From Thermodesulfovibrionia bacterium (lineage in GTDB: Bacteria; Nitrospirota; Thermodesulfovibrionia; UBA6902): a DNA stretch of 55,742 bases. Each line of letters opens with the position of its first letter. The first letter of the stretch is position 1. This document shows positions 16,714 through 52,186 of the stretch, piece after piece. The notes beneath the pieces are model-generated. The model was given only the letters and a program-made list of their open reading frames with translations, made no database searches and was not told the origin of the DNA. The position numbers were made by a program, and so were the translations under genes. The DNA lies in the NCBI GenBank assembly GCA_945788685.1, contig CALZMZ010000002.1, positions 1 to 55,742 of the forward strand, given 5' to 3'.

Positions 16714-16719
16714 GGCAGT

Positions 16720-17643
16720 TTAATTAGTCAAACCGTGATTAACAAGCCCGGATATTTTTAGAGCAACTTTCAGCGCTTCTTTACCTTCATGACCTGAAAC
16801 AAGGGGTTGGTCTGATCTTGTTACACAATCGATAAAAGACCAAAGCTGTTCCTTTAGTGGTTCTTTTTCTTCAGGTCTTTCAGTGGTTTGCCTGACTTCT
16901 CCGTTGTTTTTTTTCATATACGTTGTAATCTCCTGCCTCTGATAGTCAAGGCTTAAATAAGCATTCTGCTGAAAGACCTTGAGCTGTCTGACTTTATCAG
17001 TGGCCATTCTGCTCGTTACTGCTTCGGCAATACATCCATTTTCAAATTCAATCCATGCGTGTGCCACATCGATATTCTCGGTAAGAACTTTTGCGCCGGT
17101 TGCACGGATGTCTGATATTTCGGAATTCACCAAACTTAATATTATATCTATGTCATGTATCATTAAGTCAAGGGTCACATCCACATCAATGCCTCTCCCC
17201 AGAAATGGGGACAATCTTTGGGATTCGATGAACTGCGGCCTGTCTACCATATTACTTATAAGAGATACTCCAGAATTGAAGCGCTCCAGATGTCCAACCT
17301 GAAATATCAGGTTTCTTTTTTCAGCTTCATGTATGAGAATATCAGCTTCCTCGATTGTTGATGTTATCGGCTTTTCAAGCAGAATACTTTTATTGTGCTT
17401 CAAAAAGTCAATTCCGGTCTGAAAATGGGAAGTAGTAGGGACTGCAATACTTACAGCATCAACAGAGTCGATCACTTCCATATAATTCTGATAGGCATCG
17501 CAGTTATACTGCGATGCGATTTCCCGGGCCCTGTCAAAATTGATGTCAACTACTCCAACAAGCTTTGCATTTTCCATATCTGAAAAAATTCTTGCGTGAT
17601 GCATCCCTATTGAACCCACACCTATGACTGCAACATTAATCAC
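16720..17643 (-). CDS. Gfo/Idh/MocA-family NAD-dependent oxidoreductase (GnnA-like by context)
   Basis: N-terminal VAVIGVGSIGMHH Rossmann motif and an EKP motif. 4-nt overlap with lpxI. Confidence 0.75.
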   Translation of the reverse strand: MINVAVIGVGSIGMHHARIFSDMENAKLVGVVDINFDRAREIASQYNCDAYQNYMEVIDSVDAVSIAVPTTSHFQTGIDFLKHNKSILLEKPITSTIEEADILIHEAEKRNLIFQVGHLERFNSGVSLISNMVDRPQFIESQRLSPFLGRGIDVDVTLDLMIHDIDIILSLVNSEISDIRATGAKVLTENIDVAHAWIEFENGCIAEAVTSRMATDKVRQLKVFQQNAYLSLDYQRQEITTYMKKNNGEVRQTTERPEEKEPLKEQLWSFIDCVTRSDQPLVSGHEGKEALKVALKISGLVNHGLTN

Positions 17644-18467
17644 TTTTTGACTCCAACCACTATTATCCCTGATTTATCAGCTTCGTGTATGAATTTGTTT
17701 TTGTCAACGATGATGCATTTTCCCGCTTCAAGGGCCAGTACCTTTGCTGACACTTTTTTCATTGAGCGCAGTGTTTCAACCCCTGCAACAGGTACGTCAA
17801 AACGCATGTCCTGCTTAGGTTTGCTTACTTTTATGACCACCGCATCTTTTTTGGCAAGTTTTCCCCCTCTGCTGATGGCCTGGTCAGTTCCTTCAATTGC
17901 TTCGACAGCCATGACCGCAAGATTTTTTACTACCACAGTCTGACCGATATCAAGGCCCCCGATTTCTTTTGCAATGTCCCATCCAAAATGAATGTCCTTA
18001 AGGTCCTTTTCAGACGGCTTCCTGCGCGTCATTAAACCCTCGGTGGCAAGAAGATCCCTGGTGAAATCGGTTGTTTTATGGACTGTTATTCCTTTTTTTT
18101 CAAGCTCTTTTACAACAGCGCTCATTATAGTATCATCTGACTGGTTTTTCAGTGAGAAAAGCAGTTTTACTGCCTTAAGGTCTGGAATAATATTCGCCTT
18201 ATTTTCATAGAGAAGAGCCTTCGGGACCTTACCTGCCATAACCACATTGGATATTGAAAGCTTTTTCAGTAACGACAGAAGTCCTCCAAAGCGGCCCAGG
18301 CTTATTTTATGAAATTCATCTGAGATTGGTTTAAGAGACTCATCAGCAGGAGGCTGCAGCGCAATAGCGACTACATAATGGCCCATTTTTTTTGCTTCAG
18401 CAGCAAGGGTCAGAGGCAGTCCTCCCATCCCTGCTATCAGTCCCAGCTTATCCGGCTTTTCAGACAT
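17640..18467 (-). CDS. lpxI: UDP-2,3-diacylglucosamine hydrolase LpxI (DUF1009)
   Basis: KLGLIAGMGGLP N-terminus and a DIGQTVVV motif. Positioned after lpxA. Start taken at ATG 18467; ATG 18488 is an alternative but its RBS spacing is too short. Confidence 0.8.
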   Translation of the reverse strand: MSEKPDKLGLIAGMGGLPLTLAAEAKKMGHYVVAIALQPPADESLKPISDEFHKISLGRFGGLLSLLKKLSISNVVMAGKVPKALLYENKANIIPDLKAVKLLFSLKNQSDDTIMSAVVKELEKKGITVHKTTDFTRDLLATEGLMTRRKPSEKDLKDIHFGWDIAKEIGGLDIGQTVVVKNLAVMAVEAIEGTDQAISRGGKLAKKDAVVIKVSKPKQDMRFDVPVAGVETLRSMKKVSAKVLALEAGKCIIVDKNKFIHEADKSGIIVVGVKK

Positions 18468-18478
18468 ACAGGATGCCT

Positions 18479-19258
18479 TTATCGGCATATGCCTCTTTTA
18501 TTCTTTTCTATAAATTCTATAAAACGCTTTATCTCTTCGGAATGCTTATTTTCAAGTTTTAATTTTTTTATGGCTTCTTTTAATGTAAGTTTGCTCCGGA
18601 AGAGGACCTTGTATGCATGTTTCAGTTCCTTGATTGTTGCCTCCTCAAAATCGTGTCTCTTAAGACCAATCGTATTAAGACCATACAGTTTTGCTCTTTC
18701 TCCGGCTGCGGTTGTAAAGGGGGGAATGTCCTGGGGAATAGCACTGAAGCCGCCGATCATTGAATATGCTCCTATCCTTGTAAACTGGTGAACAGCCACA
18801 TGACCGCCTATAAATACATAATCTTCAACTTCAACATGGCCTGCAAGTGTAGTGGTGTTTGCCATAATAGTATGACTGCCTATATTACAATCATGGGCGA
18901 TATGCACGTATGCCATAAAAAAATTATTATTTCCGATTTTAGTTATCGTGTCTCCGCTAATTGATGCACGGTGTATAGTGATATATTCCCTGATAATGTT
19001 CTTATTGCCGATTTTCACTTTTGTTCGTTCATTATTGTAGCGTGTGTCCTGAGGGGGAAGCCCGATGGATGAGAAGGGGTATACTGTGCAGTCACTGCCT
19101 ATTTCTGTTTCTTCGATTACTACATGGGAGATGAGTTTTGTGTTCCTGCCGATCTTCACTCTTTTGCCGACAATGCAGTACGGACCGATCTCCACTCCTT
19201 CAGACAGCTTTACCCCTGAGTCAACTATTGCTGTACGATGAATTTTAGGTTTAGCCAT
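18479..19258 (-). CDS. lpxA: Acyl-ACP--UDP-N-acetylglucosamine O-acyltransferase
   Basis: [13 protein letters not shown] start followed by left-handed beta-helix hexapeptide repeats. The longer track ORF (to 19432) runs into fabZ and is rejected. Confidence 0.93.
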   Translation of the reverse strand: MAKPKIHRTAIVDSGVKLSEGVEIGPYCIVGKRVKIGRNTKLISHVVIEETEIGSDCTVYPFSSIGLPPQDTRYNNERTKVKIGNKNIIREYITIHRASISGDTITKIGNNNFFMAYVHIAHDCNIGSHTIMANTTTLAGHVEVEDYVFIGGHVAVHQFTRIGAYSMIGGFSAIPQDIPPFTTAAGERAKLYGLNTIGLKRHDFEEATIKELKHAYKVLFRSKLTLKEAIKKLKLENKHSEEIKRFIEFIEKNKRGICR

Positions 19259-19691
19259 TTTCCAGCTCCTGATCAGACACCATGGCTGTAAATTCCGCCT
19301 CTGATACGAGTTTGTCATCAACAAAGGCCTGGCCGGAAAATTTCCATACATTCTTCCTGTTCTGGACTTTATTGACTTCCAGCCGTAACTGGTCACCGGG
19401 AACCACAGGTTTTCTGAATTTTGCCTTTTCAATACTCATGAAGTAGGTAGATTTTCCGTTTGCTCCTGAATGATATGCCAGGATACCTGACACCTGTGCC
19501 ATAGCTTCAACAATGAGGACACCGGGCATTATGGGATAATCAGGAAAGTGTCCCTGGAAAAAAGGTTCATTTGCTGTGACATTTTTTATTCCTATAGCTT
19601 TTACATCGGGTTCTATACTCGTTATCCTGTCAACCAGGAGAAAAGGGTATCGATGGGGAAGTATATTTCGTATTTCAGTGTTGTTCATCAT
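19251..19691 (-). CDS. fabZ: 3-hydroxyacyl-ACP dehydratase
   Basis: [13 protein letters not shown] and FFQGHFP motifs. ATG at 19691 with AAGGAGG 8 nt upstream. 146 aa. Confidence 0.93.
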
Positions 19692-20757
19692 CGGACTGTA
19701 CCTCCTTGCTTGATACATTGGATTTAGGGATGTTATGGGATTGTATCTTATTTTCAATTTCCTGTAAACGCTTTATATATTCAGGCAGTCTGTTCACTAT
19801 GCTCTGGGATCTTAACCACCTGGTGTGAGGAATAGCAGGTCTGCCCGCGTACACCCGGCCCTCCGGGATATCACCGGCGATCCCTGACCCTGCTGCTACC
19901 ACAGCACCTGTTCCTATGGAAACATGATCTTTCACACCAACTTTACCTGCAAGGATAACATTGTCACCTATCACCACACTGCCGCTTATACCCACCTGTG
20001 AGACGATAATACAGTTTTTACCGATAGAAACATTATGGGCAATCTGGACCTGATTGTCGATTTTTGTACCTCTTCCAATTACCGTGTTCCCTGTTGCTCC
20101 CCTGTCGATCGATACATTGGAACCTATCTCAACATTTTCTTCAATAATAACTCCGCCTATCTGGGGGATTTTGTAATGCTCACCCTTTTCCAGAGCATAG
20201 CCGAATCCATCAGATCCTATTACTGTTCCGGAATGAACAATCACGTTTCTTCCTATAAATACTTTTTCCAGGATCGAAACATTGGAATGAATTACGGAAT
20301 CACTGTTAATTGATACCCCACTGGCAATATATGCTCCAGGATAGATAGTTACCCGGTCTCCCAATCGTACATTATCACCAATGTACGCAAAGGGGTATAT
20401 TGAAATATCATTGCCGAAATTGACATTATATCCTACTTCAGCCCTTCCGCTTATACCTGCTGCCGGATGAGGTTTTGAATACATTTTTTCCAGCACCTTT
20501 GCAAAAGCATATTGAGGATTACTTACGATTACTATATTGATTGAATCATCTCTGTTTTTCAGAATCTCTGCAAAACGTTTGTCAGTGATAATTGCAGAGG
20601 CCTTTGTTACAGATGAGTCGGGCAGACTTTTTTTATCGGACAGGAAAGTTATCTCACCCTGCAGAGCGTCTTTTATACCGGTAGCCCCGGTTATTTCGAT
20701 ATAACCGTCACCGATTATTTTGCCGTCAATGAGTTTAGCCAGCTCATGTAGTTTCAT
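19675..20757 (-). CDS. lpxD: UDP-3-O-acylglucosamine N-acyltransferase
   Basis: [13 protein letters not shown]-terminus and long hexapeptide-repeat region. Classic skp-lpxD-fabZ-lpxA order. Confidence 0.93.
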
Positions 20758-39157: not shown

Positions 39158-39883
39158 TTATTTATCAATCTTTCTTTTAAAAGCGATCAGGATGACAATT
39201 CCGATTATAAAGAGAACTCCTCCTGCCAATGCCCACATCGCGCCCGGTTCCCTGTTGACCTGGAGCAGGGCTATTTTTTGAGGATGAGGTTTAAGGTTTC
39301 TAATATTCACATTAAAACCCTTGAACACCGATGGCGTGTTCGGCATAATTCTGTCAGTCTGTAACGTCTCATTTCCTGATATGTAGTTAACATCAACTTT
39401 CCAGGCAGTAACATACCCATAATAGTCGATCTCAATATCGATTTTCTCAACATTCAGAATGGTGTCATCTGAGATCCTTAACCGGGAACCCTCCATTACA
39501 TTGGCATTTCTCTGGGATGCTCCGAAAGCGCTCAGGAGATGGGCAAGGAGCATAAAGAGAAAACCCATATGTATTATCTGGGGCGCAATCAGGAGAAGCC
39601 ATTGTGTGACCTTTCTCTTTTTGATTATGGAATCAACGCTGCAGAAGAGAGTATTCACTGCAATAACAGCAAGAACTCCGATGATTCCCCATAGCCACCA
39701 GATGTCTTTAACAGGCTGTTTCTGAATCCAGTCAATGAGCGGAATGGAATGGAGCTGCTGAAATGCCTTATTGCCGGGCATGATAAAGGCGCCGACTAAA
39801 AACAGAATCAGCAGTATCCCCAAGAACCAGAGGGTGGTTTTTAACGACAGGAAGAAGTTTAATATGTATCTCAAAATATTCAT
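39158..39883 (-). CDS. ccsB: Minimal ResB/CcsB-like cytochrome c biogenesis protein
   Basis: 241 aa with four predicted TM helices, one carrying conserved-looking His (APQIIHMGFLFMLLAH), and a short periplasmic loop. Lies directly downstream of ccsA. Confidence 0.65.
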   Translation of the reverse strand: MNILRYILNFFLSLKTTLWFLGILLILFLVGAFIMPGNKAFQQLHSIPLIDWIQKQPVKDIWWLWGIIGVLAVIAVNTLFCSVDSIIKKRKVTQWLLLIAPQIIHMGFLFMLLAHLLSAFGASQRNANVMEGSRLRISDDTILNVEKIDIEIDYYGYVTAWKVDVNYISGNETLQTDRIMPNTPSVFKGFNVNIRNLKPHPQKIALLQVNREPGAMWALAGGVLFIIGIVILIAFKRKIDK

Positions 39884-39927
39884 TTCATAATTACGGTCGA
39901 CGAATGACGGACGACGAGCGTCGGGAG

Positions 39928-40629
39928 TTAAAAACTATGCGAACTTTTCATTAACAGACTGACTCCAAGATAAGTAAAGAGCACAATAGCAAACCCAAGG
40001 ATACTCATATAAGCCATGGGTCTTCCTGCCCACCATTGCGCATGCAGCTGGAAACTGTAAAACGCCCACAATATACTTGTCCATAGCTCCTTCGGGGTCC
40101 AAACCCAGTAAGTCCCCCAGGCAAGGTATGCCCATATGCCTCCGAATATCATCGACAATGTAAAAAGACAGTAGCCTATCAGAATAGCCCTGTATTGCAA
40201 TCCTTCCAGCACCGTATCTTTTTCCTTGAGATACATACTGCCGAGGACCGCTGCAATCCCAAACAGCGCATAGGACATAAAGGCAAGAACTACATGGAAT
40301 TCAAACCAGAAAGTTTTCAGCACCGGAGGCAGAGGTGAATTATGAGCCTTTGATAACATTGAAAATGCTGTAAAGGCGGCTGTTACCACAGCAATTATGT
40401 TAAAAAAAGAGTTGCGGTTCCTTAAAGCATATCCAAATGGAATCGAAAAGGCAGCGATGGATGCTGCAAGAAAGGCTATTGTATCATGAGGACCAACCAG
40501 AGGGAGTCTACCCAGCTCTGCGCCTCTTGATACAATATATGCAGCCTGCAGAATGAGACCAAGATAGAGCAGGGGTCTCTTCCACAGTGCAAAAAGATAT
40601 GAACCAAAAGATAGTGCGAGCAATGTCAT
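39928..40629 (-). CDS. ccsA: Cytochrome c biogenesis protein CcsA (System II haem lyase subunit)
   Basis: Trp-rich WWD-type segment GGIWAYLAWGTYWVWTPKELW flanked by His residues (FEFHV, LHAQ). 233 aa. Confidence 0.82.
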   Translation of the reverse strand: MTLLALSFGSYLFALWKRPLLYLGLILQAAYIVSRGAELGRLPLVGPHDTIAFLAASIAAFSIPFGYALRNRNSFFNIIAVVTAAFTAFSMLSKAHNSPLPPVLKTFWFEFHVVLAFMSYALFGIAAVLGSMYLKEKDTVLEGLQYRAILIGYCLFTLSMIFGGIWAYLAWGTYWVWTPKELWTSILWAFYSFQLHAQWWAGRPMAYMSILGFAIVLFTYLGVSLLMKSSHSF

Positions 40630-40705
40630 AGGAGAATATTGTAACTTATCTGGTTTGTTCAGGAAAGTTAATACTAATTAAATCAATTCTGTACATGAAA
40701 GAAGA

Positions 40706-40731
40706 AAAACGCAGGACACGCCCTGCGTTTT
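40706..40731 (-). terminator. Rho-independent terminator after the YedE genes
   Basis: AAAACGCAGG / CCTGCGTTTT stem. On the minus strand it is followed by TTTTTCTTCTTT. Confidence 0.7.
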
Positions 40732-40778
40732 CAGTCTATCTTTATTTTTAAATAAAATTTCAGATTAACTGGTGTTAA

Positions 40779-41363
40779 TCATAGTCCCTTTTTCTCAAGC
40801 CATACAAAAAGGCCTAATCCTCCTGCGACAAAAATAGCGATCACAACCCAGTCATTGGCTCCGAAAACCTGGGGAAGCGTTATGGAACCCTCCCGTCCCC
40901 AGGTAAGTATTGTGTTTCTTACAGAGGGGAATGCCTCGGCAAACAGGGCCGCACCTGCCAGCATCCCGAGCAGACCCCAAAACGCATCGGTGCGCCCTTC
41001 TCCCAGGGCTCCGAGGGATGTGCCGGGACAATATCCGATAAGGCTCCATCCCAACCCGAAGGTAAGCCCGCCGATAATATTGGCGCCTATATTGGTAGGC
41101 AGTATAAGAGGTTTTGCTATCCCCATGTTATGGAGCACTGCAACTCCCACCATACCTGTCAGAATTGCAGAAAAGAAAAATTTCACTATTGTCATATCCA
41201 TTAAGCGAAGAGCGCCCATCTGTTTGTCATAGCGGACTACCCTGCCTTTCTGGAGCCAAATGCGATACCTGTCAAAAGACCGTTTATTAATATACTCATC
41301 TGTTAGCACCTCCACGATAAATAAGATTACTGAAGAGTATTCCTCCGGCAAAAAAACATACAA
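40779..41363 (-). CDS. YeeE/YedE-family sulfur-transport membrane protein, second half-gene (start uncertain)
   Basis: GYCPGTSLGALGEGR conserved-Cys motif with multiple TM helices. The TTG at 41363 overlaps the upstream gene; ATG 41219 is an alternative start. Confidence 0.78.
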   Translation of the reverse strand: MYVFLPEEYSSVILFIVEVLTDEYINKRSFDRYRIWLQKGRVVRYDKQMGALRLMDMTIVKFFFSAILTGMVGVAVLHNMGIAKPLILPTNIGANIIGGLTFGLGWSLIGYCPGTSLGALGEGRTDAFWGLLGMLAGAALFAEAFPSVRNTILTWGREGSITLPQVFGANDWVVIAIFVAGGLGLFVWLEKKGL

Positions 41364-41820
41364 CTACAATGAGACCGCTTAGGGCCAGCTGTACCATGGC
41401 CCCCAGTCCATAACCGCTCGGGCATCCTCCGGCAAGACGTGCTCCAAACATGACAATTAATCCGCCGATGAATGCAAAGGCCCCCCGTTTGACAGGACTA
41501 CTTCCAAATCTGGACGCCCACATGTCCGGCACAGACTTAATCTTAAAACTTCCATCAGTAATGGAAGAAATAAATGCACCTATCAATATTCCGACAACCA
41601 TCATTACCTGCCAGTCCACTTTTGGTGCAAACCAGTTAAAGTAAGTCATGCCTGCAACTTTTTCAGGTGAAAAAAACCGTTCTATAAAACCGCTGACCCT
41701 GACAAAGCATGTTGATGCGCCGAAGTAATTGCCGGCAATCCAGGCGGACACAATGATGACCCCACCTGTGAGGGCACCGGCAAGGTAGGGGCTCCATCCC
41801 CCGTTTCCTTTATTACTCAT
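41296..41820 (-). CDS. YeeE/YedE-family sulfur-transport membrane protein, first half-gene
   Basis: 174 aa with an ARLAGGCPSGYG conserved-Cys motif and four TM helices. Confidence 0.85.
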   Translation of the reverse strand: MSNKGNGGWSPYLAGALTGGVIIVSAWIAGNYFGASTCFVRVSGFIERFFSPEKVAGMTYFNWFAPKVDWQVMMVVGILIGAFISSITDGSFKIKSVPDMWASRFGSSPVKRGAFAFIGGLIVMFGARLAGGCPSGYGLGAMVQLALSGLIVVVCFFAGGILFSNLIYRGGANR

Positions 41821-41962
41821 TTAAATAACCTCCAATTTTATGTTATTAAATATTTTATCACCAATTTAAAACAGCTTAAATTGAGTATATGTATAAAATG
41901 ATTTATTATTTTTGTCATGTTTATACACAGACGCCGAATATCAGTCTGAACAGTAATTATAA

Positions 41963-41978
41963 AGCAAGTACTATGCCA
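41963..41978 (-). promoter_or_regulatory. Sigma-54 (-24/-12) promoter for the YedE genes
   Basis: The minus strand reads TGGCATAGTACTTGCT, i.e. TGGCAT-N5-TTGC with exact spacing, about 143 nt upstream of ATG 41820. Confidence 0.6.
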
Positions 41979-42071
41979 GAATAAATGTTGTTTTTCTATT
42001 TCGTTCGTGTCGTGTGTTAAAATTAAGAATCAATTCAAGTATATTTTAAATCATGCATCAAGGAGTAACCA

Positions 42072-43856
42072 GTGAAAAAATCAAAAAATAAAAAAGGTCT
42101 TTCCGGTATTTCAGGAAGTTTTAAGGGAAGCAGTTTTCATCCTGCAATACTTGAAAGCATAGCAGAAGGGATTGTAGTGATTGGACTGGACCGTAACATA
42201 ATTTTTGTAAATAAAATGGCAAGAGACCTGATAGGTATTCAGAATGAGGCCCCTGAAGGTAGACCATGCAGTGATGTTATACGGACAGATCTATGTAAAA
42301 ATTGTCCCATTGAATCACCTGAGAGCAATGAAAGCTGCTCTTCCTATTTAATGAACATCCAACTTTACAGGAACGATAATGAGTCCATTCCTCTCTGTCT
42401 GAATGTGGCCCCATTATATGATGAAAATGGCGAAGTTGCGGGTTTTATAGAGAACTTCAGGCCCATGAGTGAAGCTGTAAAGGCCATTGAATCCCTTAAG
42501 CAGACCAATGTGGTACTGTCACATGAAAAAGACAAGGTTGATTCGATTATAGAAAGTCTTGCAGATGGTGTGTTTACTGTTGATAAGCATCTCAGGATAA
42601 AAAGCTTTAACAAAGGCATGGAAATTCTTACAGGCCTCAGGGAATCGGACGTAACAGGATTAAAATGCGGAGAGGTGCTGAACGCTGATAACTGCAGTGG
42701 TAATTGTCCTTTTGCACATACGTTAAAGATGGGCTACGGTATTGCAAACGTGAAGGAGCGTATTTCCAGAAGTGATGGAGAGACCATGCCGATATTTATG
42801 AGTACTGCATTTCTTAAAGATGAATCCGGAGAAGATGACTTGATTGCAACAGTAAAGGATTTATCTGAGATTGAAAGGCTCAGAAAAGATGTGAATGAAA
42901 GATATCAGCTCTCCAATATTATTGGAAAAAGCAGCCAGATGCAGCAGATCTTTGAACTTATTGAGGTGCTGGGTGATGCAGACTGTGCAATACTTATAGA
43001 AGGTGAAAGCGGTACAGGCAAGGAACTGGCTTCACGTGCCATCCATCATGAAAGTTACAGACGAAGCAAGCCCTTTGTGAAGGTCAACTGCAGCGCAATA
43101 GTGGAAGGCCTTTTTGAGAGTGAACTCTTTGGACATGTCAAGGGGGCGTTCAGCGGCGCAATAAAAGACAAGGCTGGCAAATTTGAGATTGCTGATAAAG
43201 GGACTGTCTTTCTTGATGAAATTGCAGATATGCCCATCTCCCTTCAGCCAAAGCTCTTGCGAGTTCTTCAGGATATGGAGTTTGAGAGGGTAGGGGACAA
43301 CAGGACCAGAAAAGTTGATGTCAGAATTATTGCTGCTACCAATAAGCGCCTTATTGAAGAAGTGGAGGCTGGCAGGTTCAGGAAGGACCTGTATTACAGG
43401 TTATGTGTTGTGCCCCTGACCTTGCCTGCTTTGAGAGACAGAAAAGAGGACATTCCTCTTCTGGTCAACCATTTTCTGGAAAAGTGCTATATGAAAAACC
43501 CAAACAGGACAAGAATCACTGAAATCACTCCATCCGCACTTTCAGCCATACTGGACTATGACTGGCCCGGAAACATCAGAGAACTTGAGAATGCAATTGA
43601 GCACGCATACATCCGGGCAAGAAAAGATATGATAGACATAGAATCTCTTCCGTTATCATTAACGGGCAATGTCGCTAATAAAAACTCATCAATTAAGTTT
43701 GACGAATCACCTGTAACAATAGATGTTATGCAACGGCATTATATTGACGAGTTAATGAAGAAATATAATGGCAATAAATCCATGGTTGCAAAAGACCTTG
43801 GAATCAGCCGGACCACTCTTTGGAGAAGGCTGAGGGAGGCAGCTTCAGAGCATTAA
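42072..43856 (+). CDS. Sigma-54-dependent transcriptional activator (PAS-PAS-AAA+-HTH)
   Basis: Walker A GESGTGKE, a GAFSGA (GAFTGA-type) loop, ESELFGH and a C-terminal Fis-type HTH ([16 protein letters not shown]). GTG start with AAGGAG upstream. Confidence 0.92.
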
Positions 43857-43857
43857 T

Positions 43858-43917
43858 TGTTTCATGTTGAAACAACCACGTTTCAAAATCTGTTTCAATT
43901 GTGCTTCAAATTGAAAC
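43858..43917. promoter_or_regulatory. Cluster of TGTTTCA/TGAAACA inverted half-sites (candidate activator UAS)
   Basis: TGTTTCAtgtTGAAACA (43858-43874), GAAACaaccacGTTTC (43869-43884), and TGTTTCA-N13-TGAAACA (43891-43917). These lie 95-170 nt upstream of the -24/-12 element. Confidence 0.5.
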
Positions 43918-44011
43918 ATTCCTGATCTTGATAATCATTTGTTCTCTCCTATAAGGGCCCATCCCATATGATAGTTTCAATAAATCAGTATGTTACAAAG
44001 TAATCTCTCGA

Positions 44012-44027
44012 TGGCATCGCAATTGCA
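44012..44027 (+). promoter_or_regulatory. Sigma-54 (-24/-12) promoter for the dsrE-tusA-DUF302-fadL operon
   Basis: TGGCATCGCAATTGCA, i.e. TGGCAT-N5-TTGCA with exact spacing, 103 nt upstream of ATG 44130. Confidence 0.7.
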
Positions 44028-44129
44028 TCAGAATAGACAATTCAAACGAAACTCCATAAATTGAAAATATTTTGCATGACAGCAGTTTATGAAATAAGCC
44101 TGAAATAATAACCTGAACAGGAGGTATAT

Positions 44130-44612
44130 ATGTCAGAAGAGAAGAAAAAAAGGATGGCCATAATAGCTTCAAAGGGTACCCTTGATATGGCATATCCGCC
44201 CCTTGTACTTGCATCAACAGCAGCCGCGATGGAAGTTGAGACAACTATTTTTTTTACATTTTACGGTATGGATATAATCAATAAGAAGAAATATAACCAT
44301 CTGCAGGTTGCGCCGATCGGAAATCCGGCTATGCCGTCGCCGGTTCCCATGCCGAATATCATAGGCATGCTGCCGGGTATGACAGCCATGGGTACTATGA
44401 TGATGAAGAACATGATAAAGGGGATAAACTGGCCCACAATACCCGAGTTTGTTGATACCTGCCTGGAATCGGGCGTAAAGTTGCTTGCCTGCACCCCAAC
44501 CATGGAGATGACCGGCCTTAAGAAGGAAGACCTGGTGGACGGAGTTGTTATAGCTGGTGCTGCTGATTACCTTGATTTTGCACTTGATGCAAATATAAGT
44601 CTGTTCATATAA
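44130..44612 (+). CDS. DsrE/DsrF-like sulfur-relay protein (soluble DsrE2/E3-like)
   Basis: 160 aa with MAIIASKGTLDMAYPPLVLASTAAAM and FFTFYGM motifs and a conserved Cys in LLACTPTMEM. AGGAGG RBS. Confidence 0.82.
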   Translation: MSEEKKKRMAIIASKGTLDMAYPPLVLASTAAAMEVETTIFFTFYGMDIINKKKYNHLQVAPIGNPAMPSPVPMPNIIGMLPGMTAMGTMMMKNMIKGINWPTIPEFVDTCLESGVKLLACTPTMEMTGLKKEDLVDGVVIAGAADYLDFALDANISLFI

Positions 44613-44625
44613 AAAGGAGATTATA

Positions 44626-44853
44626 ATGGATGCTGATTATGTAATTGACTGCAAGGGGCTGAACTGTCCCATGCCGGTCATAAAGACAAAGAAGGCTATA
44701 GATGAGATGGAACCCGGCCAGGTCCTGAAGGTGGAGGCCTCTGATAAGGGTGCTCTTAATGATATGCCTGCCTTTGCAAAGAGGACAGGCAATGAGATCG
44801 TTGAGTCCTCAGAAGAGAACGGCGTATTTATCTTCTATATAAAGAAGGCATAA
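44626..44853 (+). CDS. tusA: TusA/SirA-family sulfurtransferase
   Basis: 75 aa with the canonical DCKGLNCPMPVIKTKKAI active-site Cys-Pro-x-Pro motif. Confidence 0.9.
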   Translation: MDADYVIDCKGLNCPMPVIKTKKAIDEMEPGQVLKVEASDKGALNDMPAFAKRTGNEIVESSEENGVFIFYIKKA

Positions 44854-44877
44854 CATGATTCTACGGAGGAAGATCAT

Positions 44878-45852
44878 ATGAAAAGATTCACCCTGTTGTT
44901 ATTAGTTGTTCTTTTAGCACATTCACCTGTGCTGGCAGCCGAAAAATTCGGTGTCTATATAAAAGTCATTGAAAAGGCCCAGGGCAGTTTAGATGAGGTA
45001 AGTAGTTCGGTCGAAGCCGGACTTAAGAAGGGTGGATGGGAAATTCTCGGGTCTCATAATTCGGGTGTGCCTGAGAAGTGTGGCTTTCGTTCCAGGGCCA
45101 TCTATTTCAGCTCTGAAGCATATGCAGCATCAATTTTAAAAAATGATGTTAAGGCCGCCTTTGCACTTCCATTAAGGGCAGGCATTTATGAGGACGAAAA
45201 GGGAATCAATGTAGCGGTTGTTAATCCATCTTCAATAAACAGGACCATTATCGATGAAACAGGAATGGATGAGTTCTCGCTGGTTACTGCAAATGCCATT
45301 GTTGAAACTATTGCTGGTTCGGTAAAAGGCGATGTTGTCAGGAAACAAGCAGGTCAAATGAGAAAGAGAGGCAAGATAGGAGGGATGGGAGGAGGTGACT
45401 TTCTAAACAAGATTGATGAGATTGTCTCGTTTCCCAACACCTCTGATTCAGCGCTAAGACGGGCAGCAGATAAAGTCAAAGAAGCCATTCTTCAGAATGA
45501 TAAGGAGTGGAAGCTGATGTATAGTTATGACCTTACAGACAGGGGAGCAGTAATTTACGGCGTGACTAAAACTGCCACTGAAGGAAAGGCTTTTAGTATT
45601 GCAGGAGAAAAAAGAGTATCAGATTCGAACATATGTCCAGGAATAGACCATGTGGCTGCCTTTCCGATTGAAGTGGTTGTTTATAAAGACGGGGGACAGA
45701 TTAAGGCAGTTCTTTTGGACGAGATGTACAGGATGAAAATGTATTTTGAGGATGCGGGCAGGTGGGCATTTATGAAGAATATTAAGATGCCGGGACGTAT
45801 AGAAAAGGAAATAGTTGACGTTGTTTCTTCCGGGCTTGACAGCCAGGATTAA
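44878..45852 (+). CDS. Secreted protein made of two DUF302-like halves
   Basis: Signal peptide (LLAHSPVLAAE). The first half has LDEV..VEAGLKKGGWEIL..AAFALPLRAGIYEDEKGINVAVVNP. The second half has AAFPIEVVVYKDGGQIKAVLLDE. Both match the DUF302 LP-x-R/E-hydrophobic-YE/KD-G pattern. Confidence 0.6.
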   Translation: MKRFTLLLLVVLLAHSPVLAAEKFGVYIKVIEKAQGSLDEVSSSVEAGLKKGGWEILGSHNSGVPEKCGFRSRAIYFSSEAYAASILKNDVKAAFALPLRAGIYEDEKGINVAVVNPSSINRTIIDETGMDEFSLVTANAIVETIAGSVKGDVVRKQAGQMRKRGKIGGMGGGDFLNKIDEIVSFPNTSDSALRRAADKVKEAILQNDKEWKLMYSYDLTDRGAVIYGVTKTATEGKAFSIAGEKRVSDSNICPGIDHVAAFPIEVVVYKDGGQIKAVLLDEMYRMKMYFEDAGRWAFMKNIKMPGRIEKEIVDVVSSGLDSQD

Positions 45853-45907
45853 TCACTATAAATTTATGTACATTATCTATATGTACAATATTAAGGAGGA
45901 GAGATAT

Positions 45908-47188
45908 ATGAAGATATTGAGAAGTCTTTTTATCTGTCTTGCAGTGTTGACATTGCTGCTTGGCTCTATTGCGTCATCTCATGCTACAAACGGATATTTT
46001 GCTCATGGTTTTAGCACAAAGAACAAGGCACTGGCCGGTGCTGGTACAGCATTACCGCTGGACTCAATTGCGGCATCAACCAATCCGGCAGGAATGGTAA
46101 GGGTAGGCAGCCGTCTTGATGTGGGAATTTCATTATTCAACCCTAATAGAGAATATACTGTTACTGGTAGCGTTAATGCGTTTCCAGCATTTAGTTTAGA
46201 TCCAGGTACAGTTGAAAGTGATTCAAAGTGGTTCGTTATACCTTCATTAGGTTATAACCGGATGATGAATGACGATTACTCCATTGGAATTTCAATTTAT
46301 GGAAATGGAGGGATGAACACTGATTACGATAAAGCAACATATCTGGCACTTATGCCAGGCTCTTCCCCGACAGGTGTTGACCTAATGCAGTTATTTATTG
46401 TTCCTACGTATTCCAGAAAATTAAATGATAAACACTCAATAGGTCTTAGCCCCATTTTAGCCTATCAACGATTTGAAGCGAAAGGATTAGACACATTTGG
46501 CAATTTAGGTGTTTCCAGCGATGCTGCTAAATTAACAGACAATGATCATGACAATTCTTATGGTGCAGGAGTTAGAGTTGGTTATATGGGAGAGGTTATA
46601 CCTGGATTATATATTGGTGCTTCTTATCAGAGTAGAACATGGATGAGTGAGTACGATGACTATGCAGGTCTCTTTGCTGAACAGGGTGATTTTGATATTC
46701 CATCAAACTGGAGTGTGGGAGTTGCCTATGAAGCAACTTCTGAAATTACATTAGTACTTGATGTTCAGCAAATACGATATAGTGAAGTCAAGTCAATTAA
46801 TAACAAGCTAACGACAACCAATCTGTTGCCCTCTTCTCTTGGCACTGATGACGGTGCTGGTTTTGGATGGGAAGATATGACAGTAGTAAAAATAGGTGCT
46901 CAATGGCAGGCTGCTCCGGATTGGATTGTAAGAGCAGGATACTCTTATGGGGAGCAGCCAATTCCAGACTCAGAGATGTTATTTAATATTATAGCTCCTG
47001 GAGTTATAGAGCACCATATCACTGCTGGATGTACGAAGAAGATTGGAGATCATCAGGAGATTGATCTGGCAATTATGCACGCATTGTCAAATGATGTTAG
47101 CGGTGCTAATGTTTTTGATCCGTCTCAAACGATTGAATTGAAAATGAACCAGTGGGAGTATACAGCAGGGTACTCCTGGAAATTCTAA
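45908..47188 (+). CDS. FadL/OmpP1/TodX-family outer-membrane channel for hydrophobic compounds
   Basis: ATG 45908 after AAGGAGGAG. Signal peptide, then ATNGYFAHGFSTKNKALAGAGTA (the family's N-terminal hatch signature). Beta-barrel ending YTAGYSWKF. Confidence 0.85.
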   Translation: MKILRSLFICLAVLTLLLGSIASSHATNGYFAHGFSTKNKALAGAGTALPLDSIAASTNPAGMVRVGSRLDVGISLFNPNREYTVTGSVNAFPAFSLDPGTVESDSKWFVIPSLGYNRMMNDDYSIGISIYGNGGMNTDYDKATYLALMPGSSPTGVDLMQLFIVPTYSRKLNDKHSIGLSPILAYQRFEAKGLDTFGNLGVSSDAAKLTDNDHDNSYGAGVRVGYMGEVIPGLYIGASYQSRTWMSEYDDYAGLFAEQGDFDIPSNWSVGVAYEATSEITLVLDVQQIRYSEVKSINNKLTTTNLLPSSLGTDDGAGFGWEDMTVVKIGAQWQAAPDWIVRAGYSYGEQPIPDSEMLFNIIAPGVIEHHITAGCTKKIGDHQEIDLAIMHALSNDVSGANVFDPSQTIELKMNQWEYTAGYSWKF

Positions 47189-47208
47189 ATATTTTAAGGT
47201 GTAAATAT

Positions 47209-47243
47209 AAAAACCCTCCTTTATTTCAAAGGAGGGTTTTTTT
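47209..47243. terminator. Bidirectional rho-independent terminator
   Basis: AAAAACCCTCCTT-TATTTCA-AAGGAGGGTTTTTTT between the convergent fadL-like gene and the kinase gene. Confidence 0.85.
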
Positions 47244-47264: not shown

Positions 47265-48602
47265 TTACTTGGGAAGAATAAAATAAAAGTTGTTTCCATA
47301 TTGTGTAGCTTCATAGCCTACAGTACCGCCATGAATCTCGATAGCATTCTTGATAAACGAAAGGCCATGTCCTGTCCCTGGCTGGCTTATAACATTACTT
47401 CCTCTGAATTCCTCATTAAATAACCTGTCTCTTTCTTCAGGGGGTATATGGGGACCTGTGCTGAAAACATTGAACTTTACTCCGTCCCTGCCATGACCGA
47501 AATGATTATTGATTATTTCATGTCCATATGAGATATACTTTCTGGTTTCTCCTGAAGCTAATGTTATTTCCTGAGTGTACTTGACAGCATTTGAAAAAAG
47601 ATTGGCATACACCTGTGCGACCAGACCCACATCTACTACAGAAATAATTTCCGATTCAGGTATTCCACTGCTTTTATTGTCAACAGATATCCCCATCCGT
47701 TTCATCTGTTCCATATAGCGGTCGAGTTGAGGCTGGATAACGTCTTTTTTCATATTGCAGGGCTTGGTCCTGGGAGTGAGTCTCCCCTGATCAAAATGGC
47801 TTTTTCTGAATAATGTCTCGATGAAAAGACTCATATTAACATAATGCTTTTCTATGTTCTCAAGTTCTCTTGTGAGGCCCTGATTTATGTCAACCATTTC
47901 CTCTGAAAAATCTTTCATGCATGTCTCATCACATTTTCCTGCAGAGAACTTGTTACTGAAGATGTCGCCCAGCTCGATATTCTTCTCGATTTTCCTCCTC
48001 AAGCCTCTGAGAAACAGTTTATATACCATATTGGGTACAATTATGTTGTGCTCTATGTCAGCTACAAGTGACTTGATGAATCTAAGATGTTCAATGTTCT
48101 TCTGGATAAGGAATTTGTTATGAAGTTTAAAACCTATGCGGTTTGCAAATTTTTCAAAGAACAATTTCTTATGTTTGTCTATTTCCTGTAAAGGATAAAT
48201 GACCAGCAGTCCAAGGACGTCGTCTTTCACCTCAAAGGGAAGTTCTTCTATAAGCGGCTCTTTTCCTCGAATTGTCAAAACCAGCCTGTCATTGCCTGCC
48301 ATATAGGGATGATCGCCCGGCATAATGTCATCAGGAGGAGGGGATTTCAGGGTTCTGGTCTCTCCTTCAGTCATTGCAGCAAGGGACATGGTATTATATT
48401 TGGGATCCACTACATATAGACTTGCATCCAAATTAAAAAAGCCTTTTGGAATGGCAACGCACAGATTGTAAAAATCCTCAAGGCCGCCAAACTCCTGGGA
48501 CAGGTCAAAAAAGGTTTTCAGGGCATTGTTTTCCTGAGCAGTGAAATTATACTGCTGATAATCCCTTTTCTTTGTCTCGATGCGTTCAAATATATGGCTC
48601 AT
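47265..48602 (-). CDS. Cytoplasmic GAF-like sensor histidine kinase (orphan)
   Basis: H-box-like ADIEHNIIVP. HATPase N/G boxes (ANLFSNAVKY, GTGHGLSFIKNAIEIHGG). No TM segment and no adjacent response regulator. Confidence 0.72.
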   Translation of the reverse strand: MSHIFERIETKKRDYQQYNFTAQENNALKTFFDLSQEFGGLEDFYNLCVAIPKGFFNLDASLYVVDPKYNTMSLAAMTEGETRTLKSPPPDDIMPGDHPYMAGNDRLVLTIRGKEPLIEELPFEVKDDVLGLLVIYPLQEIDKHKKLFFEKFANRIGFKLHNKFLIQKNIEHLRFIKSLVADIEHNIIVPNMVYKLFLRGLRRKIEKNIELGDIFSNKFSAGKCDETCMKDFSEEMVDINQGLTRELENIEKHYVNMSLFIETLFRKSHFDQGRLTPRTKPCNMKKDVIQPQLDRYMEQMKRMGISVDNKSSGIPESEIISVVDVGLVAQVYANLFSNAVKYTQEITLASGETRKYISYGHEIINNHFGHGRDGVKFNVFSTGPHIPPEERDRLFNEEFRGSNVISQPGTGHGLSFIKNAIEIHGGTVGYEATQYGNNFYFILPK

Positions 48603-49572: not shown

Positions 49573-52071
49573 TCAGCAGTACCGTCTGCAGGACCGCTCT
49601 TCACAGTCGGTCTTTCCATCACAGTCATTATCTATGCCGTCGGTACACATCGTGCGTCTCCGTTCCCGGGAGGTTGTTGGTACACAGGTCTGCTCACAAT
49701 CCGGATCATCGGCGTCTGTAAGACCATCGCAGTCATTGTCCAGATTGTCATCACAGATTTCTGCTGAAGACTGCATATTCTGAATACACTGAAGTGAACC
49801 GCCCTGACAGTCTGTAGTACCAGCAGCACAGACTCCATTGAGTCCTGTGCTGCAGGACATCCCGCCTCCTGGATTGCCTTCATCAATCTGTCCATCGCAG
49901 TCATCATCTGCACCGTTACAGACTTCAGTCAAAGGAACACACACCTGACAGGCCGCATCGCCGTCACAATCAGTATCATTACAGTCGACCATACCATCAC
50001 AGTCGTTATCAACACCATCAGTGCATGTTTCAGTTGATGGAGTACAGGTTCCACCATCTCCCATCCATGTCGTAGAAGCCATGGTGTATGGATATGACAT
50101 GCCGGTGTTCAGCCATGCCTCAAGCATGACCATGCCGTCATTAGCGAGGAAGGAAACGGATCCATTATTCGCAAGATAGAGGAACTGGATATATTCCCAG
50201 CTCGTAGTCTGATAGAGAAGGTCAATAGATGCCGATGTCGCTCCAGCAGGAGGATTCAGGGAAACCTCATCCCAGTATTCATAAGTACCACCCATGCCCG
50301 GGTTTCCGTACTGGTCATCCGGAACTGGCAGGCAGCTTCTCGATAGACATTCATCATAACTCATACCATAGGTGGGGATGCGGTTGTCATGGGTCATTAT
50401 GTTGTTGAGAACAAAATGAAAGGTCTTCTTGTATGGGCCAAAATCTCCGTTTGCCAGTTCTGCGATTGTTCCTGCAGGATTCCCGGTGTAACGGTCGTAG
50501 CCCAGCGCGATTGGTCCATAGTAGTTTGCATTGACTGCCATGAGCTTCGCTGCCCAGTCCTGAGTGATTCCCGGCTCAGCCTCATATATTTTAGTGTTTG
50601 GGTCATGGAGATCAATAATGGATTCCGCTTCAACATCTGGTCCACCTGCCGGATTTGGCACTGTTACACCGATTGGCCCGTATGCCCCGTCTTCCCTGAG
50701 CAGGTTGTTGTTGACATCATACCATTTGATATTGAGCCACATGCGCCGGCCTTCGGGATAGCCACTGATGAGTTTGTGTCCTGTCAGGTTGACCACCTTG
50801 AGAACATTGCCGTTCACCGATAAAGCAGCGGCGTTTTCAAGCTGTACCTTTGCCCGTGCTGCTCCTTCATCCCAGGAATCTCTCTGAAATCTCTCGAGCT
50901 CATCGGTCAGCCTCAGTTTCCCACGGGTATACAGATACTTCATTGCCTCGGGCATCCAGTAATTGCCTCCCTGCATATCATGGAATGGAAAATCAGTGAG
51001 ACGTGCACCGATGTCATCGTCGCCGTATCCGATCACGGGTGGAAGGTGACATGTCTGGCAGCTGAAGTAGCGGGGCGTTCCGTCTGCATAATCTCCACCA
51101 CGTCCAGCCAATTGAGAAGCATTATAGGCCCTCATAATAGCCCCGTCCCGGAGTTCCGCAGGAAGGGAGGTGTAATTTGAAACCAGGGTTTGGGAAAGCT
51201 GCCCTGCCTTATATTCACTGAATGTCCTTTCTACAATACCGTACTTGTAAGGGGCATTGTTAAAAGCTGCCTTTTCATCAACGGGTGTTCCGAGTGCTCC
51301 GCTGAACGTCCCGGGCTGAAGAGGTACCATTGTCCCATTGTTGGGTGCCAGATCGCCGACAGCGGGATTTGATACGTCATGGCAGGTACCGCAGAAATCC
51401 ACGTCGCGATGGAATTGTGATTGCATGACCGGGTGATCAGCATCAAGAACTCCCGGATCGTAGGGGCCCGGTCTCTCTTCATCACCCCAGAGGACTGCCA
51501 TACCGCTTCCGTAATAACCGATTATATTATTTGGATCGCTGCCGGGGTCTCCATAATCATTTGCAAGAAAAGGAAAGAACTGTACGCCGATATGTTCTGA
51601 ATCATCGGGGTTTGTCATCTTGTGACAGAGTTCACAGAGAACACCATCTGCATCATCCATAGTGATTGCAGAACCGTCCGTAGGAGTAGACCGTCCATCA
51701 TACCATGCCCTCGGGGCGTGACAGCGGAGACATAAATCACCGGATCCGTCGAAATCCTGCTCGGCAATGGCCATCGTGGCCCAGAATATAGGGTCCCTGC
51801 CGGCCTGTGCCATCATGCTGCCTGACCAGCGCTGTGTGAGACTCTCCGGTCTGTCCTCAGCTTCATGGCAGTTCAGGCACGCTTTATTGAGTGTATTGTC
51901 CTGCCATGGACCCGGTACATCTTCGACCGCAGGAATGAGGGTTTTCACTTCCATCGGCTGCGTACCGGGCTGCTGAATTTCATTGGGTACAATATCTGCA
52001 GCATATATAAAACCAGCAATAAAGAGCAGAAGAATACATATTAGAAATGATAAATAATATTTTGCTTTCAT
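49573..52071 (-). CDS. Secreted pentahaem c-type cytochrome with C-terminal Cys/Asp-rich DNDCDG (MopE-type) repeats
   Basis: ATG 52071 (MKAKYYLSFLICILLLFIAGFIYA signal/anchor). Five CxxCH motifs (CLNCH, CLRCH, CELCH, CGTCH, CQTCH). Four C-terminal repeats (TDGVDNDCDGMVD, NGADDDCDGQID, DDNLDNDCDGLTD, TDGIDNDCDGKTD). Confidence 0.85.
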   Translation of the reverse strand: MKAKYYLSFLICILLLFIAGFIYAADIVPNEIQQPGTQPMEVKTLIPAVEDVPGPWQDNTLNKACLNCHEAEDRPESLTQRWSGSMMAQAGRDPIFWATMAIAEQDFDGSGDLCLRCHAPRAWYDGRSTPTDGSAITMDDADGVLCELCHKMTNPDDSEHIGVQFFPFLANDYGDPGSDPNNIIGYYGSGMAVLWGDEERPGPYDPGVLDADHPVMQSQFHRDVDFCGTCHDVSNPAVGDLAPNNGTMVPLQPGTFSGALGTPVDEKAAFNNAPYKYGIVERTFSEYKAGQLSQTLVSNYTSLPAELRDGAIMRAYNASQLAGRGGDYADGTPRYFSCQTCHLPPVIGYGDDDIGARLTDFPFHDMQGGNYWMPEAMKYLYTRGKLRLTDELERFQRDSWDEGAARAKVQLENAAALSVNGNVLKVVNLTGHKLISGYPEGRRMWLNIKWYDVNNNLLREDGAYGPIGVTVPNPAGGPDVEAESIIDLHDPNTKIYEAEPGITQDWAAKLMAVNANYYGPIALGYDRYTGNPAGTIAELANGDFGPYKKTFHFVLNNIMTHDNRIPTYGMSYDECLSRSCLPVPDDQYGNPGMGGTYEYWDEVSLNPPAGATSASIDLLYQTTSWEYIQFLYLANNGSVSFLANDGMVMLEAWLNTGMSYPYTMASTTWMGDGGTCTPSTETCTDGVDNDCDGMVDCNDTDCDGDAACQVCVPLTEVCNGADDDCDGQIDEGNPGGGMSCSTGLNGVCAAGTTDCQGGSLQCIQNMQSSAEICDDNLDNDCDGLTDADDPDCEQTCVPTTSRERRRTMCTDGIDNDCDGKTDCEERSCRRYC

Positions 52072-52186
52072 TACTCTTGTCCTTTCAGTAATAACAATGT
52101 TAAATATATTAAATTCATGCAATTAAACATCATCCCCTTCATAACTCGTATGAAAAAGAGAAATTACATTTATAAATAAAACAATC

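Follow-up and report, generated by a model that had tools for sequence, protein, structure and literature searches.

A putative sigma-54-dependent sulfur-acquisition locus of a Thermodesulfovibrionia bacterium joins a TodX/FadL-type channel and a secreted double-DUF302 protein to DsrE2-like, TusA and split YedE genes

The window analyzed here is the full 55,742-nucleotide (nt) stretch of contig CALZMZ010000002.1 (assembly GCA_945788685.1) from a Thermodesulfovibrionia bacterium. It contains a locus in which genes for a DsrE2-like protein (dsrE2), TusA (tusA), a secreted protein with two DUF302-like halves (DUF302x2) and a FadL/TodX-type outer-membrane channel (fadL) lie downstream of a gene for a sigma-54 enhancer-binding protein (EBP), and in which a split pair of YeeE/YedE-family genes (yedEa and yedEb) is transcribed divergently. 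To the YedE/TusA/DsrE relay theme the locus adds a FadL subfamily associated with sulfur and a double-DUF302 family not characterized before, conserved across phyla. What was observed directly are the gene identities, the predicted folds, the promoter elements and, across phyla, the linkage to sulfur genes. Read from gene context, which suggests both substrate and direction, there is about an even chance that the locus is a sigma-54-dependent sulfur-acquisition regulon that imports poorly soluble zero-valent sulfur. The locus had been described earlier in a sequence-only reading; what was observed there is real except for the boundary of yedEb and a frameshift in that gene, and its interpretation is partly supported.

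The product of fadL was identified as a predicted FadL/OmpP1/TodX-family barrel by its profile match, modeled fold, NPA motif, signal peptide and C-terminal aromatic residue. The NPA motif is diagnostic of the FadL family. N59 and P60 of the protein were invariant and A61 was nearly invariant, and the chain ends in ...YSWKF. When the AlphaFold model (pLDDT 85.6) was compared with the PDB by Foldseek, the top 24 matches were all TodX, FadL, TbuX or CymD barrels (TM-score 0.6-0.7, E 6.6e-24 to 7.6e-19), and a 'delta NPA' mutant was among the entries matched. Profile comparison with the PDB matched TbuX, TodX and CymD at E 3e-27 to 3e-20, whereas E. coli FadL was matched at about 1e-4; by profile, the window FadL is much nearer to these three monoaromatic channels than to the E. 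coli protein.

The gene just upstream encodes a secreted protein that the sequence-only reading had described as a double DUF302 protein. This build is probable, with support mainly from structure and also from profile comparison. In the AlphaFold model (pLDDT 90.6, pTM 0.87) the secondary-structure elements occur in the same order in both halves, and Foldseek matched the model to 1q9u (TM-score 0.81, E 1.7e-6), 1j3m (TM-score 0.68) and 7tj1 (TM-score 0.72), with ~130 residues covered. Alignment of the two halves by hhalign placed 88 columns in register at E 0.002, but with a probability of only 13.7%; BLASTP of half 1 against half 2 gave no significant similarity. PF03625 was matched by the N-terminal half only (residues 74-117; 25.5 bits against a cutoff of 23, E 1e-5). 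The family is small and sharply set apart: a search of 5.8 billion sequences gave 360 relatives, and 250 clusters out of 1.84 billion representatives matched at E <= 0.001. Cys68 was invariant in 70/70 full-length members across phyla and is the sole universally conserved cysteine; in 17 of the 70 it is the only cysteine of the mature protein. Residues R100, R162, R285, W211, W296, F175, M286 and D292 were conserved in at least 95% of the same members.

Both cytoplasmic carriers were recognized by family profiles. The product of dsrE2 scored 170.9 bits against the NCBIfam DsrE2 model (NF047629), its closest NCBIfam model; this is under the cutoff of 210, and the protein is therefore best named DsrE2-like. 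The cysteine of its LLACTPTME motif aligns with the DsrE-like structure 2qs7. TusA matched PF01206 and carries the Cys-Pro-x-Pro active-site motif of its family as CPMP; it scored 52.7 bits, under the cutoff of 78, against the NCBIfam TusA equivalog. The DUF302, FadL and DsrE assignments, any of which could have refuted the sequence-only reading, thus held up in the Pfam profile hidden Markov model search. Its proposed layout of one component per compartment is also consistent with the sequences: signal peptides are found on FadL and DUF302x2 and not on TusA or DsrE2, and the YedE pair are membrane proteins. As a separate observation, residues 61-95 of the DsrE2-like protein (window 44310-44400) include a Met/Pro-rich loop (NPAMPSPVPMPNIIGMLPGMTAMGTMMMKNM) that is conserved in the orthologue of the related locus L003, and residues 62-85 fall outside the alignment to 2qs7.

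The genes dsrE2, tusA, DUF302x2 and fadL are separated by gaps of 13, 24 and 55 nt, as first described, and a Shine-Dalgarno sequence is present ahead of each. The open reading frames given for these four genes, the EBP gene and yedEa were recovered with the same boundaries (Table 1). The terminator proposed after fadL was likewise found, as a hairpin at 47210-47243 that folds strongly. This hairpin was missed by a consensus scan of the region for sigma-70 promoters and terminators, in which match counts were at the level of chance, and no Rfam family was found in the locus at E <= 0.1.

Each of the two divergent units is preceded by an exactly spaced and correctly oriented sigma-54 element, in agreement with the sequence-only reading. 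The pattern TGGCAY-N5-TTGCW occurred exactly twice in the 55.7-kb window, at these two positions, against 0.18 occurrences expected; two matches were reached in 1/100 shuffles. Relatives were scanned with a threshold of at least 9/11 consensus positions, for which the background was 0.054 per kb per strand. The -24/-12 element of the yedE promoter and a short block with it were conserved in L001, the closest genome (CP070632.1; 80% protein identity, syntenic from ccsB to a kinase gene beyond fadL). Elements of the sigma-54 type were also found just 5' of the FadL/DUF302x2 unit in Nitrospirota (L001, L002, L011), KSB1 (L033, L034) and Vicinamibacteria (L037, L040, L050). From the spaced element, the adjacent activator gene and the conservation in relatives, both dsrE2-tusA-DUF302x2-fadL and the yedE pair are predicted to be sigma-54-dependent; rpoN itself does not lie within the window.

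The EBP has two PAS domains with conspicuous cysteines (residues 60-210; window 42072-42920), arranged as C-x9-C-x2/3-C with further cysteines and as C-x9-C-x3-CP. These clusters are conserved in the full-length or nearly full-length orthologues (those of the window, L001, L003, L011 and L012) and could constitute a redox, Fe-S or persulfide sensor. The window EBP has no receiver domain; linked activators of other phyla begin with a region of receiver size, and a histidine kinase gene adjoins them. Directly 3' of the EBP stop codon, about 100-150 nt upstream of the -24/-12 element, lie the only two GTTTCA-N0-16-TGAAAC palindromes in the window, against 0.15 expected. TGTTTCA/TGAAACA half-sites just past the EBP stop were also present in five Nitrospirota relatives (L001, L002, L003, L011 and L012), and the PAS-PAS EBP probably binds these repeats.

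The divergent unit encodes two half-size YeeE/YedE proteins. Both match PF04143, in keeping with the YeeE/YedE type assigned in the sequence-only reading, and they conform to the definition of the PmpAB/YedE1E2 type (PMC11582611) in that adjacent genes encode the C- and N-terminal halves of the family with one conserved cysteine each. YedEa is 84% identical to its L001 orthologue. The boundaries first given for yedEb, 40779-41363, were wrong: frame analysis and DNA alignment placed its true start at the ATG at 41299, overlapping the yedEa stop as ATGA in the same manner as in L001, and the 68-nt overlap arose because an upstream TTG had been taken as the start in extending the reading frame.

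To see what surrounds double-DUF302 genes, one genome per species was scanned, which yielded 80 loci encoding DUF302x2 in Nitrospirota, Acidobacteriota, KSB1, Calditrichota, Bacteroidota/Rhodothermota, Gemmatimonadota and Marinimicrobia. Neighboring open reading frames were clustered without prior labels and the clusters were annotated afterwards; counts refer to the 62 species-level loci that had 1.5 kb or more of flanking sequence on each side. A fadL gene lay directly beside the DUF302x2 gene on the same strand in 35 of the 62, including 15/15 loci of Acidobacteriota and 8/9 of Nitrospirota clade A, and at least one sulfur gene lay within 5 kb in 37 of the 62. The sequence-only reading had made conserved linkage to dsrE/tusA a point on which it could fail, and linkage to these and other sulfur genes was found well beyond the source genome. 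Recurrent partners were split YedEa/YedEb, DsrE2, TusA, a DsrC-like protein and a secreted rhodanese, together with a molybdoenzyme accompanied by iron-sulfur (FeS) and NrfD subunits, whose best score was as thiosulfate reductase PhsA (497 bits, against ArrA 143 and YnfE 156), a type III sulfide:quinone reductase (SQR; 676 bits, cutoff 525) with DUF1641, and an octahaem cytochrome assigned to the tetrathionate-reductase family (601 bits, cutoff 375). A few loci carry LbpA/LplA genes of the sHdr type. The typical order in Acidobacteriota, all in one direction, is PhsA-like, FeS, NrfD, YedEa, YedEb, FadL, DUF302x2. The pair itself starts with DUF302x2 in Nitrospirota clade A and with FadL elsewhere, and the DUF302x2 gene is paired with more than one FadL subtype. 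FadL-DUF302x2 adjacency recurs in at least six phyla and in both gene orders.

Individual loci showed further features. A different FadL subtype (20-26% identity to the window FadL) occupies the same position in L004, L005, L007 and L074, and L032 (4800-8531) and L049 (2198-4864) have two FadL-family genes, placed around or ahead of the double-DUF302 gene. In L030, L066, L078, L117 and L139, genes for LbpA (GcvH-like), mostly together with sHdr-type lipoate-ligase genes, stand beside DsrE2/TusA/FadL genes.

The window-type FadL subfamily, with more than 7,900 matches, is much larger than the DUF302x2 family. Four close FadL relatives, selected solely by the length of their contigs, all have an adjacent DsrE2 gene (4/4). 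Two of the four are dsrE2-tusA-fadL operons without DUF302, and one of the four continues with genes for a rhodanese, a DsrE-like protein, a full-length YedE and a second TusA. A reverse census was made by scanning metagenomes; it gave 80 window-type FadL loci, 29 of them with good flanks, and neighbors were counted within 3 kb. A sulfur-trafficking neighbor was present in 18 of the 29 well-flanked loci (DsrE2 in 9, TusA in 6, DUF302x2 in 5, YedE in 4). From these neighbors and the operons without DUF302, the broader conserved linkage is that of FadL with DsrE2(-TusA), and DUF302x2 is a frequent but optional third partner. FadL, DUF302x2, dsrE2-tusA and split yedE behave as interchangeable sub-modules, not as one cluster.

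Table 1 Features of the sulfur locus and their positions in the window
Feature	Position	Strand	Basis
Terminator-like hairpin 3' of the yedE pair	40705-40732	-	12-bp stem, 5 GC pairs, T-run; consensus scan
yedEb, PmpB/YedE-type half-size YeeE/YedE membrane protein, GYCPGT	40779-41299	-	PF04143 profile positions 18-149, and DUF6691
yedEa, PmpA/YedE-type half-size YeeE/YedE membrane protein, GGCPSG	41296-41820	-	PF04143 profile positions 175-310, E 6.5e-21
Sigma-54 -24/-12 element of the yedE pair, TGGCATAGTACTTGCT	41963-41978	-	TGGCAY-N5-TTGCW match
Sigma-54 EBP, PAS-PAS-AAA+-HTH	42072-43856	+	PF00158 E 1.4e-68, two PAS domains, HTH_8, GAFSGA loop
Candidate activator site, TGTTTCA-N3-TGAAACA	43858-43874	+	Palindrome search
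Candidate activator site, TGTTTCA-N14-TGAAACA	43891-43918	+	Palindrome search
Sigma-54 -24/-12 element of dsrE2-tusA-DUF302x2-fadL, TGGCATCGCAATTGCA	44012-44027	+	103 nt ahead of the dsrE2 ATG
dsrE2-like sulfur carrier, 160 amino acids	44130-44612	+	PF13686 E 3.3e-48, 164 bits against a cutoff of 25
tusA, 75 amino acids, CPMP motif	44626-44853	+	PF01206 E 4e-27, 94.3 bits against a cutoff of 28.6
Secreted tandem-DUF302 protein, 324 amino acids, signal peptide, invariant Cys68	44878-45852	+	Sequence, PF03625, AlphaFold
FadL/TodX-type channel, 426 amino acids, signal peptide, NPA motif, C-terminal Phe	45908-47188	+	PF03349 E 6.5e-31, 107.7 bits against a cutoff of 29.7
Intrinsic terminator	47210-47243	+	Fold -23 kcal/mol, z = -6.0, then U7; position also fits the convergent kinase gene

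Taken with its recurrent neighbors, the locus can be read as an import route for which we infer the substrate, the direction of flow, the role of Cys68, the contacts between proteins and the signal sensed by the EBP. The cysteine-rich PAS-PAS EBP would activate two divergent sigma-54 promoters, one serving the split YedE importer and the other serving dsrE2-tusA-DUF302x2-fadL. Poorly soluble zero-valent sulfur (S8, or an inorganic or organic polysulfane) would then cross the outer membrane via the TodX/FadL-type channel. In the periplasm the tandem-DUF302 protein may take up this sulfur as a per- or polysulfide on Cys68, or in a pseudo-dimer pocket, and would pass it to the YedEa/YedEb importer in the inner membrane. 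In the cytoplasm TusA and DsrE2 would carry the sulfur as persulfide to downstream sulfur metabolism. The wider claim, that the TodX/FadL-type channel and the tandem-DUF302 protein make up a dedicated, widely distributed outer-envelope uptake system for elemental sulfur (cyclo-octasulfur, polysulfanes), is offered tentatively, as possible rather than probable.

Several results weigh against this import reading. Some concern the locus itself. Relative to L001, yedEb lacks 7 nt between 41256 and 41255, as found by frame analysis and DNA alignment, so that the reading frame of its first 15 codons (MSILINGLLTGIAFG) does not continue into the remainder of the gene. Intact reading frames in both yedE halves were therefore not found in the window, where yedEb, frameshifted after codon 15, is either a pseudogene or an assembly error, and the inner-membrane step may be broken here or use another importer. 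A shared activator site was rejected, since no TGTTTCA/TGAAACA palindrome occurs near the yedE promoter. The best sigma-70-like match of the region, TTGACA-17-TAAATT (45836-45864, + strand; 10/12), lies at the 3' end of DUF302x2 just before fadL and could drive fadL separately; matches of this type occur at chance frequency in the region.

Other such results come from relatives. The sequence-only reading had described dsrE2-tusA-DUF302x2-fadL as one tightly spaced run, and these four genes do not form a fixed unit: the sub-modules occur separately. In L001 the segment corresponding to 43918-44941 of the window (promoter, dsrE2 and tusA) is replaced by 390 nt with their own sigma-54 element, and both L001 and L012 have EBP-DUF302x2-fadL without dsrE2-tusA. 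Nitrospirota L081 and L084 have dsrE2-tusA-fadL without DUF302x2. The sub-modules are separable, and no fixed four-protein pathway is therefore required. In Nitrospirota clade B, 0/16 double-DUF302 genes have a FadL neighbor. In four of these loci, which make up a subclade (L014, L019, L021 and L031, at ~position 10001), the DUF302x2 gene has neither a FadL nor a sulfur neighbor, and Cys68 is kept; read by eye, the genes around it are presumably two for ABC permease-like proteins, one for a long TPR-repeat protein and one for a CobW-like GTPase. Among the 29 well-flanked FadL loci, 11 had no sulfur gene by tblastn; six of these were inspected and showed mostly housekeeping contexts, and one of them has a half-size YedE gene that tblastn had missed.

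The same parts could work outward, with FadL and DUF302x2 disposing of periplasmic zero-valent sulfur produced by SQR, Phs/Psr-type or tetrathionate-type enzymes, for example in extracellular sulfur deposition or in relief of sulfane-sulfur stress. FadL-type channels are passive diffusion channels, and the direction of flow would therefore follow the gradient, which counts in favor of this alternative. So does the company of the pair in many loci, where a periplasm-facing PhsA-like reductase, type III SQR and octahaem tetrathionate reductase are found; in a cable-bacteria model (PMC13293266), type III SQR is believed to be oriented toward the periplasmic side. The pair also occurs, however, with the inward-working importer YedE1E2 (PMC10812762) and with cytoplasmic TusA, DsrE2 and DsrC-like proteins. 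With this company inward flow is the simplest reading. Characterized FadL-family proteins are moreover uptake channels, judging by the names of their PDB entries, and we regard outward transport as unlikely.

In a second alternative the channel passes an organic hydrophobic compound, either organosulfur (dialkyl polysulfides, thiols, thiophenes) or a non-sulfur compound, with the carriers processing or detoxifying what is released or with an indirect linkage. The nearest solved relatives of the window FadL, TodX, TbuX and CymD, carry monoaromatic hydrocarbons, and the 11/29 FadL loci without a detectable sulfur neighbor also fit an organic substrate. Yet no hydrocarbon- or fatty-acid-degradation genes appeared among the recurrent neighbor clusters, in which inorganic-sulfur enzymes and carriers recur instead, and the linkage to DsrE2/TusA/YedE is seen in several phyla and with several gene orders. 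An organic substrate is accordingly rated as quite unlikely.

A role for the module in handling a chalcogen other than sulfur, or a metalloid (selenium or thio-arsenic species, for example), is very unlikely. The YedE family includes selenium transporters, and the window TusA also scores on YedF models (45 bits, under the cutoff of 79). ArsR- and ArsM-like genes (clusters c41 and c63) follow the pair in several Thermoanaerobaculia loci: in L053, L055, L056 and L057 we take the genes after FadL-DUF302x2, read from the sequences by eye, to encode an ArsR-like regulator and an ArsM-like methyltransferase. A DUF302 gene was also noted in a cyanobacterial sqr/arsenic operon (PMC5061849). These ArsR/ArsM neighbors are confined to one clade, however, and the DsrE2, DsrC-like, SQR, rhodanese and LbpA/LplA neighbors are sulfur-specific. 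The score of the linked molybdoenzyme as PhsA, set against those for ArrA and YnfE, led us to reject an arsenic or selenium reading of that enzyme, and this alternative is therefore kept at low weight only. Most improbable is that DUF302x2 and FadL are general envelope proteins beside DsrE2/TusA by chance. In its favor, sub-modules occur apart and the double-DUF302 genes of Nitrospirota clade B are solitary. Against it, the two genes are neighbors in at least six phyla, either one coming first and the FadL subtype varying; the four genes have short gaps and lie between a single promoter and a single terminator; and sigma-54 elements precede the pair in three phyla.

How nearly insoluble elemental sulfur (S0) passes the outer membrane in S0 oxidizers, reducers and disproportionators is a standing question, and the outer-membrane step of thiosulfate import was described as 'yet to be identified' in a 2026 proteomics paper (PMC13490349). 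The candidate offered here is a FadL subfamily encoded with DsrE2, TusA, YedE, rhodanese and Phs/Psr-type genes in Nitrospirota, Acidobacteriota, KSB1, Calditrichota, Bacteroidota and others. If the import reading is true, S0 would have its first identified outer-membrane route, and DUF302 domains would gain a first function, as periplasmic sulfur carriers via Cys68. Marker-gene reasoning is refined as well, in that the parts act as exchangeable sub-modules and not as one cluster.

Beyond the sulfur genes, a 445-amino-acid protein is encoded convergently to fadL (47265-48602, - strand) with a match to HATPase_c only, no HisKA and no obvious membrane segment; this kinase gene keeps its position in L001 and L012 (cluster c68). 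Farther on (49573-52122, - strand), an 849-amino-acid secreted protein has several CxxCH haem-binding motifs and C-terminal Cys-rich MopE-type metal-binding repeats (PF11617). On the other side, CcsB-like and ResB-like cytochrome c biogenesis genes (39158-40629, - strand) adjoin the yedE pair, and the ccsB-yedE region is syntenic in L001, with an extra ~2.2 kb between ccsB and yedE there. An lpxD-lpxA-lpxI-GFO/IDH-DegT run precedes dsrE2-tusA-fadL in L081 (1-4843) and is also present at 15595-20757 of the window, about 24 kb upstream of the locus.

No paper linking FadL or a double-DUF302 protein to DsrE2/TusA/YedE was found, in a search that most subscription journals lay outside. Searches for FadL with TusA/DsrE, and for 'fatty acid transport protein' with 'sulfur disproportionation', returned nothing relevant in the literature covered, and two apparent DUF302 matches were rejected as they were really DUF3025 and DUF3029.

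Among known systems, the sequence-only reading had likened the locus to the YedE-TusA-DsrE (YTD) cluster, which consists of yedE-tusA-dsrE and two small proteins (PMC9751629). These two (Chp1 and Chp2) form with the DsrE-like protein a DsrEFH type II heterotrimer of about 33 kDa (PMC13293266). The locus resembles the YTD cluster, which occurs in Nitrospirota and Desulfobacterota and is thought to feed sulfane sulfur into cytoplasmic sulfur metabolism, in combining genes for a YeeE/YedE-family protein, for TusA and for a member of the DsrE family. Membership was nevertheless rejected. The locus has only one DsrE-family gene, followed after tusA by DUF302x2 and fadL; it is not a YTD cluster because the Chp1/Chp2 (DsrF/H type II) genes are absent and its DsrE is a single 160-amino-acid DsrE2-type protein (PF13686), not a heterotrimer subunit. 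Its YedE is, moreover, split in two and transcribed divergently, with DUF302x2 and FadL added, and the YTD literature examined made no mention of a double-DUF302 protein or a FadL channel.

The yedE pair can be compared with split importers. Split YedE1E2 has been shown experimentally, with sulfane-sulfur assays, to import zero-valent sulfur (PMC10812762), and the half-size PmpAB proteins have been proposed as a heterodimer equivalent to the full-length YeeE/YedE transporter (PMC11582611). The locus shares with these the two adjacent half-size genes with one conserved cysteine each (GGCPSG and GYCPGT), and differs in that the pair is under a predicted sigma-54 promoter, is linked to outer-membrane and periplasmic genes and has a frameshifted yedEb.

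The activator can be set beside those of the FisR type. FisR-type sigma-54 activators have cysteines in the sensor region and control sulfide-oxidation genes. The locus EBP is likewise a sigma-54 activator with cysteines in its putative sensor region and would control sulfur genes; here that region consists of two PAS domains with the cysteine clusters described above.

The window FadL shares its fold (TM-score about 0.7, E to 6.6e-24), Pfam family, NPA motif, signal peptide and C-terminal Phe with FadL, TodX, TbuX and CymD (1t16, 3bs0, 3bry, 6z34). It differs from the solved members in its ~17% identity to them and in a context of sulfur carriers and enzymes, not of fatty-acid or aromatic catabolism; for the Chlorobaculum FadL homologue CT2230, a part in moving hydrophobic sulfur chains was put forward only as speculation (bioRxiv 10.1101/172254). 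As to DUF302, genes for single-domain proteins have been noted, without a function, in sox clusters and in an sqr operon (PMC5037610, PMC11034169, PMC5061849). The window protein has the same fold as such single-domain proteins (1q9u, 1j3m) and the same recurring company of sulfur-oxidation genes, and unlike them it is probably a fused tandem of two DUF302-like halves, in one secreted chain that has an invariant cysteine and is paired with FadL.

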